IMG/VR virus record: IMGVR_UViG_3300027901_000002
Coordinates: 1 to 64,000 of that record
Origin: a virus
Reading direction: 5' to 3' (one strand)
Length of the DNA: 64,000 bases
In this document: positions 15,828 through 56,954 of the stretch, one piece after another
Layout of the letters: the number at the start of each line of letters is the position of its first letter
How positions within the stretch are numbered: the stretch's first letter is position 1
Notes under the pieces: model-generated
Seen by the model: only the letters and a program-made list of their open reading frames with translations
Told to the model about the DNA's origin: nothing
Database searches by the model: none
Translations under genes and position numbers: made by a program

Positions 15828-17492
15828 TCATAATATCATATCATTGCTTATTTCTGATTCTGCTTTTAATTTATAAAAGTCTGTATCTATTAAACTAAGA
15901 AAAGGCTCGGCCTTGAGATAAACTTGACTTCTTTTTAAGTCTTTGTAATTTGGTACGAATCCTTCTTCTTTAATTTTTTCTATATCTTCTTCGTCAAACG
16001 ACAAAACTAATTCGTTTCCTTTGTAGGGAGAAACAAACTTACCGTTTAACTTTTTTGGAAATTTCTCAAAAGGTATAATGTAAGGGTTATCGCCAGGATT
16101 AAATATTTTGTTAAAATAATCTCTTGCGTTTCTTGCTCCCCTAGAATTATAGTGACCAACTACATATTCGTCCATGTCGTTGTTCAAAGCTCCTTTCGGG
16201 GCTATGTAATCCCAAGGAAATTTCTCAAAATTGTCGTCTATAACTTTCATTAACAACTTAAAATCACTAGGAATATCTTCTGAATCTAATAAGATATTCA
16301 CTAACACTTCTTGCATGTCTGCCGAAAACCTAGAAGTGTTTCTTTTCTTCATGGATATACCTTTAATCTCTAATTGAGGTGTGTCTAATCTAGTTCCATC
16401 CATCCACACGTTTCTCTTCACGTAATTTTTTGCCGCTTTAACTAAGAATTTATCCGAGATAGATTCTAAACCAACCTTCATAGTGTGGTCTTGTATGTTG
16501 TAGACTTCTCTTAAATAGTCGTCTATTGCGGTGTTAATATGTTTTACTAACATTGCTGCTTCCCATTCTGCACTTAATAAATTATCAGATTTTAGGATAG
16601 GAAAACAGGAATCTGTGTCTCCTCCCACTATCTCGTAGCCAAAATTCCTAACAACGTTCATCATTTTCTTAGTTAAATCTTGACACATAACAGTACAAGA
16701 GTTAAAAACGAATTGAGAATAATTTCGATCCGCTCTTAGACCCATTATTCCGAACCCACCATTCGTGAAAGTTTTTATTCTAAATTGTTTACCATCTAAC
16801 AATTTATAAAACGGATCTTCTGAATTTTTCACTTTCTTAAGGTATTCTTTCGCTCTTTGTTGAGCGCGAATTCTATAACTTAACCATTTAGAGAATTTCT
16901 TTTTGTTTACGGATTCTATATCTTTTCTAAAGAAACCAATTGGAGTTTCTATAAGGAATTTTCTATTCCATTTTTCGCCGTTTTCATCCCAAACCCATTC
17001 GTCGTCGTATTTTTTTATTTTAATAGCAGTCCTTATTCCAGCGTTTGAACTCATAATAGCGTTTGGATATTGCTTATTAAAATCTATCGTTGCCACCCAT
17101 ACAAACATTCCTTTTCTTAAAGGAGGCGGAACATATCCTCCTACCTTTTTACCAACATCGTGTAGTGAATTATATTCTACAATTTCTCCTCTTCTTTTAG
17201 CAACTTCTTCTAAGTCTTTAAGAGTTATCGTAAATTTATCTCCTATCTGTTCTTTTGGTTTTAACGGTAATCTCTCCCATTGTTGGTATTTCGTGTCAAA
17301 AACCATTTTATCTCTAAAATCTCTTATTGTGTCGTGGTCGTGCATTTTAGAGGAATAAATACCGTCTTCTGGAGGAGCTACGACTAACTCAGCTTGTTCG
17401 AATTGATCTTGAACTAAATTAAACTTCTCATTAAGAAGAACTAAACCTTCAACATCAACAAGATTATAATCAAGAAGTTTTTTGCAATTCAT
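15828..17492 (-). CDS. polB: Family B DNA polymerase, C-terminal subunit (ExoIII + polymerase domain)
   Basis: YNLVDV (ExoIII), DFNKQYPN (motif A), KTFTNGGFG (motif B), GGDTDS (motif C), KNY, KG. Confidence 0.92.
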   Translation of the reverse strand: MNCKKLLDYNLVDVEGLVLLNEKFNLVQDQFEQAELVVAPPEDGIYSSKMHDHDTIRDFRDKMVFDTKYQQWERLPLKPKEQIGDKFTITLKDLEEVAKRRGEIVEYNSLHDVGKKVGGYVPPPLRKGMFVWVATIDFNKQYPNAIMSSNAGIRTAIKIKKYDDEWVWDENGEKWNRKFLIETPIGFFRKDIESVNKKKFSKWLSYRIRAQQRAKEYLKKVKNSEDPFYKLLDGKQFRIKTFTNGGFGIMGLRADRNYSQFVFNSCTVMCQDLTKKMMNVVRNFGYEIVGGDTDSCFPILKSDNLLSAEWEAAMLVKHINTAIDDYLREVYNIQDHTMKVGLESISDKFLVKAAKNYVKRNVWMDGTRLDTPQLEIKGISMKKRNTSRFSADMQEVLVNILLDSEDIPSDFKLLMKVIDDNFEKFPWDYIAPKGALNNDMDEYVVGHYNSRGARNARDYFNKIFNPGDNPYIIPFEKFPKKLNGKFVSPYKGNELVLSFDEEDIEKIKEEGFVPNYKDLKRSQVYLKAEPFLSLIDTDFYKLKAESEISNDMIL

Positions 17493-25186: not shown

Positions 25187-26122
25187 TTAATCCTCTTCTA
25201 ATAATGAAAACAAGTAATTTATTTGAATAATTTCGCTACTATACATCCTTAATCTAGCGTCTACTTTTGCAAACGCTTTAGAATACTTAAGAGAATTATC
25301 ACCTAATAAATCGTAATATTCCTCTAAAAAATCTCTTACGTCAAACGCTTCTTGTCTATATATCTCAAAAAAAGTTGCTCTTGGATTTTCTGATTCGTAA
25401 ACTCTTTGAGCTACGCTCCTACCAGTTTGTTCGTAAATCTTATACAAGTGATCCGTTGTTATAGGGTTTTCGTATCCACGAAGAGCTTCTAAACAATCGT
25501 TTAGCATGTGTCTTAAATCCCCTTTATAATATTCTGCTATATTTTTAGACATTACTTCTGGGAAGTCGAATTCTACTCCTTCCTTATTAGCTATATCCAA
25601 AAATAACTTAGCTGATTGTTCAGTCGTAGGTCTTTTAAAAAAGAACGTAGCGCAACGAGAAATTAAAGCTGGTTCTTTTATACCAGATATGTTGTTTAAA
25701 CATAAAATAAACTTACACCTATCTTCGTTCTTTTCTATAACTGGTCTAAGAGCGTGTTGAAATTCTCGAGTAGAAGAATCAACCTCGTCTAATAAGATAA
25801 ATCTACAAGGGCTACCGCTTTCTGGTTTTGTTCTCGCAAATTCTTCTATTCTATCTCTTACTGTATCTATTCCTCTTTCGCTTGAAGCGTTTAGTTCTCT
25901 AAAGTCCTTATCTCCTTCGTTTGTATTAATATGAATCGGTCTTCCAAGAACTGTTCTTGCTACTAATAACGCCATAGTTGTTTTGCCACACCCTGGAGGC
26001 CCAACAAACATAAGATGAGGAATATCGCCAACTTCTAAAAGAGCTTTTATATCTTTTACTATTTGTTCGTTTCCTATAAACTCGTCGAAAGTTCGAGGAC
26101 GATACTTTCTATCAAGATTCAT
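25187..26122 (-). CDS. rfcS: Replication factor C small subunit
   Basis: KYRP.TFDE.IG, GPPGCGKTT, ELNAS.ERGID, LDEVD, SRC, GDLR. Confidence 0.95.
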   Translation of the reverse strand: MNLDRKYRPRTFDEFIGNEQIVKDIKALLEVGDIPHLMFVGPPGCGKTTMALLVARTVLGRPIHINTNEGDKDFRELNASSERGIDTVRDRIEEFARTKPESGSPCRFILLDEVDSSTREFQHALRPVIEKNEDRCKFILCLNNISGIKEPALISRCATFFFKRPTTEQSAKLFLDIANKEGVEFDFPEVMSKNIAEYYKGDLRHMLNDCLEALRGYENPITTDHLYKIYEQTGRSVAQRVYESENPRATFFEIYRQEAFDVRDFLEEYYDLLGDNSLKYSKAFAKVDARLRMYSSEIIQINYLFSLLEED

Positions 26123-37157: not shown

Positions 37158-38228
37158 TTATAAAACCATATCACCAGTAAATCTTAATAAGGTCGCTTGT
37201 TTTTTTTCTTTCTGTTTCTTTTGCTCTTTTGTTTCCTTTGGTTTTGTTTTCTTTTTCTTCCCATGTAACCAATCCTCTTTCTCCTCTTTTGGTTTAAACT
37301 TAATAGGAGGAAAATTCATTTTCGCCCTCTTATCGTGTTTTCCAAAATTAAGAAGAATCCCGTTAAGATATTTTTGTTTGTAGTCGTATTTGTATGTGTC
37401 TACAAAAGACAAATTTTCGCTTGGTGAGACACTTGAATAAAATTTATGAAGGTTGTTTCCCAACCAATTTAAAATAAAGATGAAAGGATGTTCGCAATTC
37501 TCGAAATCTTTTTTCTCACATTTTCCAGTCAATATTTTGTAAGCAACTTGCTGAGAACTAAGCTTTTCTTCTTCTATTGGTTTAAAGGATTTAATCCCAC
37601 TCAATATGTTTCTCAAAGTCACTCGCATGTCGGAGTCGTAAATATCCTCAATGTCTCCCTGCCAATCTGGATATTTTTTCTTAACGAATTGCTCTACGTC
37701 CTTTCGAGTAGGAGCTTGAAGTTTTAGCGGAGTCATTTGTTTTGCGACTGTTGCGTGAACCGTATCTTTTTTATTGACAATTACAATAAAAGGATTTTTG
37801 GATTCTTTTACGTAAAAATTAATGAGAGCATAAGCTCTCCAGTAAAAGGAGTCTCCCTCTACTACGAAGATAGTGTTCCTCGTTTGTAGAGGGAGTTGTG
37901 CAAAATCCTTCAGTAAATCCTCGGTGTTTCTAGGATAAGAGTATTTTATCTGCCACCCAATTTCGCTGGCAATAAGTCTTGGGAGTGAGGATTTTCCAAC
38001 GCCATGTTCGCCAAACAAAAGGATTTTTTCGTTATTAAGGATAAGCTTTCGCAATTGATTTCTTTGTTTTTCGTTTCCCGCGATTAAAAAACTCGCCAAA
38101 ATTTTTTTGCCTGTGTAATTTTCGTAAGCTGTTGTGCATTCTTCAACAGTTGAATTACACAGGCAAGCGATTTCAGGTAATGTAAACCTATTCTGATATA
38201 CTAATTTTTTTACGCGTTTTCCTAACAT
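37158..38228 (-). CDS. rfcL: Replication factor C large subunit-like AAA+ protein
   Basis: GEHGVGKS, degenerate Walker B, D.R..L sensor, basic tail with PIP-like QATLLRF. ATG 38228 is preferred over the track's 38258 start, which lies inside the ncRNA. Confidence 0.75.
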   Translation of the reverse strand: MLGKRVKKLVYQNRFTLPEIACLCNSTVEECTTAYENYTGKKILASFLIAGNEKQRNQLRKLILNNEKILLFGEHGVGKSSLPRLIASEIGWQIKYSYPRNTEDLLKDFAQLPLQTRNTIFVVEGDSFYWRAYALINFYVKESKNPFIVIVNKKDTVHATVAKQMTPLKLQAPTRKDVEQFVKKKYPDWQGDIEDIYDSDMRVTLRNILSGIKSFKPIEEEKLSSQQVAYKILTGKCEKKDFENCEHPFIFILNWLGNNLHKFYSSVSPSENLSFVDTYKYDYKQKYLNGILLNFGKHDKRAKMNFPPIKFKPKEEKEDWLHGKKKKTKPKETKEQKKQKEKKQATLLRFTGDMVL

Positions 38229-38237
38229 AAATTTAAG

Positions 38238-38366
38238 TAAGGAAGGTCGGATTTGCACCGACGCTTTCTTAGGTGATGGTCTCAGTAAAGAAAGTCTAAA
38301 ATAGATAAGCGGACGTCCTTACCATCATTACCGTCAGTAGGCTTTACGCTATCTATTTTCTTCCTT
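38238..38366 (-). ncRNA. tRNA-like structured RNA (acceptor stem + T-arm, two extended kissing arms)
   Basis: AAGGAAG/CUUCCUU 7-bp terminal stem, GUCGG-UGCAAAU-CCGAC T-arm, 13-bp and 7-bp arms, complementary loops UGAUGGU/ACCAUCA. Confidence 0.75.
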
Positions 38367-38401
38367 TATTTTATTTTATTTTTAAATTTTCTTAACATAA
38401 A

Positions 38402-38423
38402 AATATTTTAAACATTTATAAAT
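38402..38423 (-). promoter_or_regulatory. Putative TATA-type promoter motif (copy 2), upstream of the tRNA-like RNA
   Basis: Plus-strand AATATTTTAAACATTTATAAAT. Confidence 0.5.
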
Positions 38424-39428: not shown

Positions 39429-39566
39429 TTCGAGTCGGTAGAGTTCGTCAACTCAGTGTTTCACATGCATGTTACGCACACCCCTGATAGCTCCTTGCTG
39501 TTGATTGAGGTAAGTGCAATGAGCACGTCTCTCGCTCCTTAGGAGTCCGTCTTAGGAGGCACCGAT
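39429..39566 (-). ncRNA. BHB-flanked element C (138 nt): predicted intron/circular RNA
   Basis: CGAG-AAA-UCGGU ... ACCGA-CUCG-AAA; GC-rich and structured. Confidence 0.75.
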
Positions 39567-39979
39567 TTCTCGTCTAACTCTTTTAACCATCTATTTATAA
39601 AACCATTTATTTCGTGAGTTGGAACGTTATATCCGCTTGGACTACCTTCAGACCATTTGTTTAAAATTCTTTGCGTTTCTAACAAAACTAGTTCTGCCAT
39701 AGTTTTTCTTTCTTTCAGAAGGTGTTGTTTTCTACTTAATTCCGCTTTTTCGTACATTCCATCTCTATAAAGCATTCTTGCAAACTTCATTTTTTGACGC
39801 AATTCAAAAATACCTAAATAATGACGATTAAACATTTCCACCAAAAACCTAGAATTTCGTCCTCTTTTTTCGAGCATTTTAATTGCTTTGTAAGTTCGCA
39901 AAAAATTACCAATACTTAGTTTAATTGGATTAGTACTTATATTACTACAAATTGATTCTATTTTTTCTCTTTTTGACAT
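39539..39979 (-). CDS. Hypothetical protein; 3' end interrupted by BHB element C
   Basis: 146-aa ORF. The predicted spliced form ends ELDEK-stop. Confidence 0.6.
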   Translation of the reverse strand: MSKREKIESICSNISTNPIKLSIGNFLRTYKAIKMLEKRGRNSRFLVEMFNRHYLGIFELRQKMKFARMLYRDGMYEKAELSRKQHLLKERKTMAELVLLETQRILNKWSEGSPSGYNVPTHEINGFINRWLKELDEKSVPPKTDS

Positions 39980-40194
39980 TATTTTTCGTCTAATTTAGAT
40001 ATTGGACAATTTTCCCAATCTTGTGAATTGTAACAACCGCTAGTACATCCTCCTCCTTTGCCACATATTTCTCCACCACCTCTTAAATCTACAAGATATG
40101 GACATGTTGTTTTACAAATCCACGTAACATGGTTCCAAGGGCAGTTGTTTATGTATTCACAACCTATACAATAATCTACGCTATAACTTGGCAT
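39979..40194 (-). CDS. Small Cys-rich protein
   Basis: Likely ATG at 40194 (MPSYSVDYC...), 10 cysteines. Confidence 0.6.
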   Translation of the reverse strand: MPSYSVDYCIGCEYINNCPWNHVTWICKTTCPYLVDLRGGGEICGKGGGCTSGCYNSQDWENCPISKLDEK

Positions 40195-40196
40195 AT

Positions 40197-40341
40197 ATCG
40201 AGTCGGCCTCAATTGAGATTTTTGCTCTGGCTTGGGAAATTTGCATGCTTTCCAAAATAGTTAAAAGCTATAAAGTTTATAATCCAATGGGATCTCTAGT
40301 CCCTGTCTACCCCCCAAGAGGCCGTCGCAGAGCTTACCGAT
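40197..40341 (-). ncRNA. BHB-flanked element B (145 nt)
   Basis: CGAG-AAA-UCGGU ... GCCGA-CUCG-AUA; inner stems GCUCUG/CAGAGC and CUUGGG/CCCAAG. Confidence 0.7.
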
Positions 40342-40427
40342 TTCTCGTTCGGCGGGATGTAGTGACAATACGCACCGTCCCTATGTGACCTTCCTTATTA
40401 CTCTTACGAGCTATGCCCTATACCGAT

Positions 40428-40559
40428 TTCGAGTCAGCTGGAGCTCCCAAAGAACTTTCGGTTAGAGACGATATACGCTTCAACCTCCCCTGCATCCACT
40501 CGTGTAGAGTCTTTCTCTCTACTCAGGATCTACGGCTGTCCCGCTTCGTTCACGCTGAT
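40428..40559 (-). ncRNA. BHB-flanked element A (132 nt)
   Basis: CGAG-AAA-UCAGC ... GCUGA-CUCG-AAA; inner GUAGAG/CUCUAC hairpin. Confidence 0.75.
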
Positions 40560-47240: not shown

Positions 47241-47264
47241 AATATTTTAAAACTTTTTAAAATA
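47241..47264 (-). promoter_or_regulatory. Putative TATA-type promoter motif (copy 3)
   Basis: Plus-strand AATATTTTAAAACTTTTTAAAATA, just upstream of ATG 47233. Confidence 0.55.
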
Positions 47265-47299
47265 TCTTTTATGATTTTTAAAAATATAAAATACATTTC

Positions 47300-47495
47300 A
47301 AATTTGTCAAACCCCTGTAGTACTAGGGTACTTTGACAAATTTAAAACTTTATTATTTCGATTATATTGATTCTGTTTTGACTTCAATCGTTTTAAATCT
47401 GATGTAACGATTTTAAAATTATTTCACTTTTTTAACAAAAATGTCAAAATCTGATTAGTCAGATTTATTCGTCAAAAAATAAGAAATTCAGATTT
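47300..47495. repeat. Non-coding region with inverted repeats and short iterated motifs (origin/regulatory candidate)
   Basis: 12-bp IR AAATTTGTCAAA (47300-47311/47332-47343), AAATCTGA-TTAG-TCAGATTT (47447-47466), repeated TTTGAC/GTCAAA and AAATCTGA. Confidence 0.7.
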
Positions 47496-56852: not shown

Positions 56853-56954
56853 TTTTGTTCTTCTTTTTAAATACTTTTAAACAATTTTCACAAATGTAAG
56901 CTTTATGATGTGATATTTTTGTGATATTTTTTGACCCACAATAAGGACATTTTT

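Follow-up and report, generated by a model that had tools for sequence, protein, structure and literature searches.

A candidate t-element-like cassette: a tRNA-like four-way junction in the mRNA leader of a viral clamp-loader-like gene

In a virus of archaeal type, a 129-nt RNA fold that retains the acceptor/T-arm half of a tRNA lies downstream of the promoter of a clamp-loader-like gene and upstream of its start codon. The reading that we favor, at a probability of roughly 0.4, is that this element is a t-element-like cassette, tRNA-derived or tRNA-mimicking, which was inserted into the leader of this gene in this lineage only and would be cut by RNase P and tRNase Z. It is favored because the acceptor/T-arm domain is intact, because t-elements provide precedents, because tRNA genes of a sister virus (G001) occupy a comparable slot, and because an ATG lacking a Shine-Dalgarno (SD) sequence stands 9 nt after a stable fold.

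The stretch of DNA that was analyzed, “the window,” comprises the first 64 kb of a virus record of 99,014 bp that has direct terminal repeats; its GC content is about 32%, and the minus strand carries nearly all of its genes. DNA of this virus has been found in marine sediment and seawater metagenomes. Genes for a family-B DNA polymerase, a TFIIB-like factor and an RFC small-subunit-like protein make the virus look archaeal-type. Features at the locus are given below in window coordinates; position i of the element corresponds to window position 38367 - i.

38406 to 38423, minus strand: promoter motif ATTTATAAATGTTTAAAA of the downstream gene, a TATA-like box plus a proximal A/T box, which recurs before other genes of this virus and G001 and aligns with the promoters of G001 and of another relative, L035.
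38387 to 38401, minus strand: upstream copy of a 14/15 direct repeat, TTTATGTTA[A/G]GAAAA, whose partner at 38217 to 38231 lies at the true gene start.
38367 to 38392, minus strand: predicted A-rich, unstructured 5' leader, placed by TATA-like spacing and by a AAAGAAAA box that is conserved in relatives; it stays unpaired when folded in context.
38366 to 38238, minus strand: the tRNA-like four-way junction, 129 nt.
38360 to 38366, minus strand: 5' strand of the 7-bp acceptor-like stem, AAGGAAG (element 1-7), pairing with CUUCCUU.
38298 to 38359, minus strand: 13-bp arm in the D-arm position (element 8-20 with 56-69, U59 bulged, 35-nt apical region), from the fold and pair probabilities.
38323 to 38337, minus strand: CUGA-N6-UGAUG, box D'/C'-like, at the apex of the long arm; a possible K-loop, as a lead only, with weak snoRNA C/D matches.
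38321 to 38327, minus strand: UGAUGGU (element 40-46), proposed loop-loop partner.
38264 to 38294, minus strand: 7-bp arm in the anticodon-arm position (element 73-79 with 97-103, 17-nt loop), from the fold and pair probabilities.
38274 to 38280, minus strand: ACCAUCA (element 87-93), the other proposed loop-loop partner.
38246 to 38262, minus strand: T-arm GUCGG-UGCAAAU-CCGAC (element 105-121), 5-bp stem and 7-nt loop, from the fold.
38238 to 38245, minus strand: 3' strand of the acceptor-like stem, CUUCCUU (element 122-128), and the discriminator-position A129 (38238), from the fold; CCA is not encoded.
38229 to 38237, minus strand: 9-nt spacer CUUAAAUUU between element and ATG, without an SD.
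37158 to 38228, minus strand: P0002, a 356-aa AAA+ P-loop protein, clamp-loader large-subunit-like by fold, identified from its translation, Foldseek and homologues.

The helices described in the earlier note, namely the acceptor-like stem, the T-arm, the 13-bp arm and the 7-bp arm with its 17-nt loop, were all recovered in place on the minus strand, the last two standing, as it had claimed, where a tRNA has its D and anticodon arms; the 9-nt gap to the ATG at 38228 was likewise confirmed. The element has a minimum free energy of -39.2 kcal/mol; 200 shuffles gave -25.1 +/- 3.2 (z = -4.48), and none of them folded as well; the plus strand folds worse (z -3.2). The four helices comprise 32 bp without a mismatch and have pair probabilities of about 0.9-1.0, both in isolation and in the predicted transcript, whose flanks are unpaired; in the acceptor and T-stem, all 12 pairs are Watson-Crick, each with a probability of at least 0.79. 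Linkers at the junction are short, with AGA between the 13-bp and 7-bp arms and a single C between the 7-bp arm and the T-arm. In the T-arm, the equivalents of G53-C61, U54, C56 and A58 are present, with G at position 55 where tRNAs have U55. By this folding analysis the predicted structure is a real one.

As the earlier note had proposed, the element is a tRNA-like fold; it is not a conventional tRNA, with or without introns. A 7-bp acceptor stem with discriminator and a 5-bp/7-nt T-arm are present as in a canonical tRNA; a D-arm and a 5-bp anticodon stem with a 7-nt loop are not. ARAGORN, in default, intron and relaxed settings, made no call at the locus, and with or without introns it made none elsewhere in the genome; a scan of the whole window at Rfam gathering thresholds was empty. 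The Rfam/Infernal comparison suggested in the earlier note does point to the element, at a sub-threshold score: the single match to RF00005 on the whole 99-kb virus lies at 38238-38320, with 17.2 bits (gathering cut-off 29) and an E-value of 0.04 per genome. This score comes from the acceptor, variable stub and T-arm, the other two arms being skipped as local ends; three other related records gave no RF00005 match at E <= 1. A covariance model built from the element alone (R1) was run against the window, the sister virus G001 in full (99.5 kb) and another five loci (190 kb in all); besides the element it matched only two sequences, both of them true tRNA genes that lie in tandem in G001 and reach 63.7 and 50.2 bits with RF00005.

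One possibility is that this is a chance fold in a locally GC-richer patch, with a coincidental resemblance to tRNA. Bare minihelix geometry (a 7-bp stem plus a 5-bp/7-nt hairpin) occurs about 10 times per genome, equal to the frequency in shuffles, and this, like the sub-threshold RF00005 score, speaks for such an explanation; with a T-loop-like loop, however, this geometry occurs once in the real genome, at the element, compared to 0.1 times per shuffle. The folding energy exceeding that of every shuffle, the coincidence of the genome's only RF00005 match with the fold, and the return of true tRNAs only by the reciprocal model search make chance quite improbable. We regard the tRNA resemblance as moderately supported: beyond chance, reciprocal and specific, and resting on the tRNA top half. 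The 17-mer T-arm of the element is, in addition, identical to the T-arm of many phage tRNAs. Counting against the cassette reading are the sub-threshold tRNA signal, carried by the minihelix alone, the shuffle-level frequency of the geometry when the T-loop-like loop is disregarded, and the G for U55.

Another possibility is that the element is a genuine decoding tRNA containing one or more introns, for example a tRNA-Leu(GAG) with the loop CUGAGAC and a UGAUG/CAUCA anticodon stem. CUGAGAC does fit the Y-U-NNN-R-N anticodon-loop pattern beside the 7-nt complementarity, and A73 suits Leu; but ARAGORN with introns allowed was negative, a D-arm cannot form, and the second arm and the T-arm are 1 nt apart. 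Deletion scans, in which every single stretch and 930,716 pairs of stretches were removed and ARAGORN was rerun, gave no better results than shuffled interiors: single deletions yielded heterogeneous anticodons, and 8/930,716 two-deletion variants were called as tRNAs with the native acceptor, with mixed anticodons, compared to 0 to 1,723 native-acceptor calls in eight runs with shuffled interiors. A scanner for 3-4-3 bulge-helix-bulge (BHB) geometry found no convincing BHB bracketing the element, only weak slipped-register A/U options, and none at any junction that a split tRNA would require. We find this explanation hardly credible, and the conventional intron-containing tRNA that the earlier note had named as its refutation did not emerge.

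The same scanner picked out three strict brackets elsewhere on the minus strand, at 40428-40559, 40197-40341 and 39429-39566, each with a CGAG/CUCG central helix and AAA or AUA bulges. The inserts that they enclose are 132, 145 and 138 nt long, with fold z-scores of 0.5, 0.0 and -0.85; an architecture common to the element and these inserts was considered and rejected, as the inserts do not fold significantly.

The promoter places the element within an mRNA leader. The motif ATTTAWAAANNTTTAAAA is found 7-25 nt before start codons, in the window at 38406-38423, 2005-2022, 47246-47263 and 56865-56882 (minus strand) and also in L035 and G001, and it is conserved before the homologous gene in those two relatives. 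At this locus it lies 40 nt upstream of the element. Because this family-conserved promoter drives the downstream gene, the element is part of the mRNA leader and not a separately promoted gene; the upstream TATA-like motif pointed out in the earlier note is thus present, but it belongs to the downstream gene and is not the element's own promoter. Judging by the spacing between TATA-like box and start codon of other genes, transcription probably starts near 38392, inside a conserved AAGAAAA box. The ATG at 38228 has no SD, though the virus uses GGAGG/GAGGT elsewhere.

This start codon is confirmed by the homologues of P0002 (11, at 48-68% identity), which start xxxLGxRVKK. Sequence matches for P0002 are to generic P-loop/AAA+ proteins only. 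Its AlphaFold model has a mean pLDDT of 68.6, with a core of 80-95, and the best Foldseek matches to the model are RFC large-subunit chains (RFC chain A), with other clamp-loader subunits, RuvB and Orc1/Cdc6 close behind. The earlier assignment of an RFC large subunit gene at this position agrees with these fold matches, and on the modeled structure it is reasonable to call P0002 RFC large subunit-like. The RFC small-subunit-like gene, at 25187-26122 of the window (minus strand), has GPPGCGKTT, DEVD and SRC motifs and is 71% identical to its G001 counterpart; together, this gene and P0002 may give the virus a clamp loader of its own. The G001 homologue of P0002 (L034:3932-4000) apparently starts 23 codons further upstream, at ATGATGA, after GGGAG; the ATGATGA...CTGA at this start resembles C/D boxes but is coding sequence.

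The element is absent, by eye, by BLAST and with R1, from all four accessible relatives of the downstream gene (L034-L037, L034 being in G001). In L035, which encodes a protein 100% identical to P0003, the same upstream zinc-finger gene is followed by the same promoter motif, ATTTAWAWAKGTTTAAAA, then AAAGAAAA, then the ATG. G001 has, after the same promoter, an AT-rich leader of about 85 nt that contains a GGGAG site, and in L036 and L037 another ORF abuts the homologous gene. Absence from four relatives, two of which share the promoter, marks the element as an insert in the mRNA leader that is specific to this lineage. The insert is about 155 nt long, between the promoter-proximal box and the ATG, and consists of 20 A-rich nt, the 129-nt fold and CTTAAA. 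The direct repeat copies bracket it 170 nt apart and can be extended to 35 nt at 71% identity, and an upstream copy of gene-start sequence like this was found at 1 of 367 gene starts in the two viruses. A target-site duplication is not proven, because the 3' half of the upstream copy is the promoter-proximal box conserved in relatives.

The repeats also allow a different construction, in which they bracket a 170-nt BHB intron (38392-38223) cut by tRNA-splicing endonuclease: the UUUAUGUUARGAAAA copies would pair as a 5-4-3-bp BHB, and excision would restore AUG UUA GGA right after the promoter. The scanner does report the geometry at 38398/38228, the direct repeat is there, and the genome has three strong BHB elements 1-2 kb upstream. 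We nevertheless consider it very unlikely: the pairs are all A-U or G-U, motifs of similar quality arise by chance about once per 100 nt in a control region, and the probable transcription start is downstream of the motif's 5' half, so that the candidate is probably outside the transcript. It is missing the CGAG/CUCG core of the real BHB elements, which, unlike the element, show no significant fold.

Searches for homologues were negative. No copy besides the element itself was found in its own genome, none was found with the covariance model in five related partial virus records, and an exact 21-mer had no match in IMG/VR; the homologue P0004 is likewise not in IMG/VR. GenBank phages gave only a 34-nt match in Vibrio phages (E 0.4). 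The exact 22-mer of T-arm plus acceptor had no match in 185,579 species genomes, and a degenerate pattern had 18, about the number estimated for chance; the few of these that are tRNAs are bacterial and so give no clue to the host. Copies of the element on contigs from DNA runs of four other metagenomes are letter-identical, with 0 differences, in alignments that stop at the masked low-complexity stretch 38354-38390. With a single instance, no homologue and identical copies, there is no covariation, and this too counts against the cassette reading. No RNA run is among the sequencing runs listed as containing the sequence.

Alternatively, the element could be a neutral relic, either a decayed viral tRNA gene or a foreign DNA scrap acquired by recombination or insertion, tolerated and functionless. 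In its favor, the element is lineage-specific, the sister virus has real tRNAs while the genome of the element has none, and a 14/15 direct repeat flanks the inserted block. However, four mismatch-free helices in a 32% GC genome argue for either recent arrival or selection; an unremoved 129-nt structure so close to an SD-less ATG would be expected to be costly to a gene that is kept in all relatives; and no source sequence was found in the searches. On balance we hold a functionless relic to be doubtful, though it deserves some weight.

A comparable weight may be given to the possibility that the fold stays in the mRNA as an uncut structured leader, with a cis effect on stability or translation or as a protein platform (for example for L7Ae, on the K-loop-like CUGA-N6-UGAUG apex), the fold being locked by loop-loop pairing. 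The very stable fold would suit such a role, as would the box D'/C'-like motif at the apex of the long arm, whose type occurs only 3 times in 198 kb (both strands of the genome), and the 7-nt complementarity between the two loops. However, all of these motifs were found post hoc, there is no full C/D or H/ACA architecture and no Rfam family match, the element is not conserved, and the T-loop-like hairpin stacked on a 7-bp stem with discriminator A is left unexplained. We therefore see an uncut leader as possible rather than probable.

The kissing loops proposed in the earlier note are weakly supported by this calculation: the heptamers UGAUGGU and ACCAUCA are present, with a predicted duplex energy of -8.1 kcal/mol, and 2.3% of loop shuffles give such a 7-nt match (p = 0.023). 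The anti-SD-like sequence that it pointed out, AUCACCU, is indeed found at element positions 90-96. An anti-SD role does not fit the SD type of the virus: the genome contains ATCACCT 5 times, and no ATG of this virus is preceded by AGGTGAT as an SD, the ribosome-binding sites being GGAGG/GAGGT, so this motif was given no weight.

Several other RNA classes were considered and rejected. A second CUGA lies 36 nt beyond CUGA-N6-UGAUG; a box C/D sRNA would have a full C, D', C', D set with two guides of about 12 nt, which is not present, and the Rfam C/D score is 16.7 bits against a threshold of 80. If the long arm is read as H/ACA, with a pocket, a K-loop and AGA, the pocket lies about 19 nt from the AGA instead of 14-15, and its strands are only 5 nt; Rfam gave no such match. 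Hammerhead and other ribozyme cores are absent, with no Rfam match. A tmRNA requires a tRNA-like domain, a tag frame and pseudoknots; the ARAGORN tmRNA search was negative, and there was no Rfam match.

If the element is a t-element-like cassette, its processing might run as follows. The family promoter at 38423-38406 would give a single transcript in which the AUG is preceded, in this order, by about 25 nt of leader, the 129-nt fold and 9 nt. RNase P, tRNase Z and the CCA-adding enzyme recognize a tRNA by its acceptor/T-arm half, and the coaxial minihelix of the element, with its discriminator A, would be recognized by the same three. Cleavage by RNase P before 38366 and by tRNase Z after 38238 would release a stable RNA of about 129 nt, probably CCA-tailed, and leave the mRNA with a 9-nt SD-less leader, close to the short-leader form of L035. 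The transcription start, both cleavages, CCA addition and the benefit to translation are all steps that we infer. Some archaeal tRNase Z enzymes may need more than the minihelix, and the element has neither a D-arm nor an elbow.

The closest parallels are the t-elements of plant mitochondria and of Haloferax volcanii, where they lie upstream of 5S rRNA. In Haloferax, t-elements beside another RNA are cut in vivo by RNase P and tRNase Z (PMC4326828). In plant mitochondria they set the 5' ends of mRNAs, including cox1, rps4 and ccmFN1, and the released t-elements carry non-templated C or CCA; the T-arm motif GGTTCRANYCC has been used to find them in Arabidopsis (PMC1920247). The T-arm of the element, GGTGCAAATCC, differs from this motif by one mismatch, T to G at position 55, and the same T-arm is found in real phage tRNAs. 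A t-element is a non-canonical tRNA-like fold that keeps the acceptor/T-arm domain, which is what was found here: as in these systems, that half is intact and lies inside a longer transcript beside another RNA's end. Unlike them, the element is viral and 129 nt long, has two greatly expanded arms in place of the D and anticodon arms, and is a single copy without relatives.

The true tRNAs of G001 (L042:16551-16622, a tRNA-Ala, and 16630-16700) come from the same virus group and follow the same strand logic; like the element they stand directly upstream of an ORF, have a discriminator A and encode no CCA. They lie within an operon, 16 nt before the next ATG. Unlike the element they are cloverleaves of 71-72 nt at a non-syntenic locus, and by BLAST the element has no similarity to them or to G001 as a whole. 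The second of them (L042:16630-16700, corresponding to G001:56630-56700, plus strand) has an anticodon loop of 6 nt (GUGAGA) or 8 nt (CGUGAGAG), depending on the stem register, and the T-loop CUCAAUU; it scores 50 bits on RF00005, ARAGORN calls a 2-nt anticodon, and it could be a frameshifting or otherwise unusual decoder.

More distant likenesses can also be drawn. In mascRNA/MALAT1-type 3' modules and in the tRNA-like units of gammaherpesviruses, RNase P and RNase Z act on a tRNA-like fold in a longer transcript to generate RNA ends, and a small, stable RNA results; unlike the element, these are eukaryotic nuclear systems that act on 3' ends or miRNA precursors. Archaeal BHB introns, including the three inserts at 39429-40559, are like the element GC-richer, 130-145 nt long and removable at the RNA level by host tRNA maturation; the element differs in having no CGAG/CUCG BHB at its borders and in being strongly folded, and would use end-processing enzymes instead of the splicing endonuclease. 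A C/D-containing tRNA-Trp intron is known in Euryarchaeota. The element resembles this intron and box C/D sRNAs in having CUGA and UGAUG boxes in a tRNA-related RNA, with a K-loop-like apex possible, and differs from box C/D sRNAs in its incomplete box set.

A bolder form of the cassette reading, which we consider speculative and improbable, is that the element is a mobile tRNA-shaped cassette whose insertion is made harmless by RNase P and tRNase Z excision from the mRNA leader, an “end-processing intron.” If so, and counting the three nearby BHB inserts, the virus would be relying on splicing as well as end trimming, the two branches of tRNA maturation in its host, to remove selfish inserts from its RNA. 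Once released and CCA-tailed, the RNA, with the kissing loops and the K-loop-like apex that it would carry, might itself be a decoy for a host factor of the tRNA-binding or L7Ae type.

To our knowledge, tRNA-like mRNA punctuation has so far been shown only for organelles and a few cellular RNAs. If the proposed cuts occur, it would extend to a marine-sediment virus with archaeal-type replication and transcription genes, and the locus would illustrate how an essential gene of replication copes with a structured insert of 129 nt that ends 9 nt short of a start codon lacking an SD. On present evidence the element is one unconserved instance, and its value is that of a testable lead: a four-way junction whose arms are expanded, found alongside BHB inserts in the same genome. 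This genome also has two related palindromic hairpins in intergenic regions, AAATTTGTCAAACCCCTGTAGTA...TTTGACAAATTTAAAAC, located 3' of promoter-like motifs at about 47290-47340 and 69275-69325 of G000 (plus strand; the second is beyond the window).
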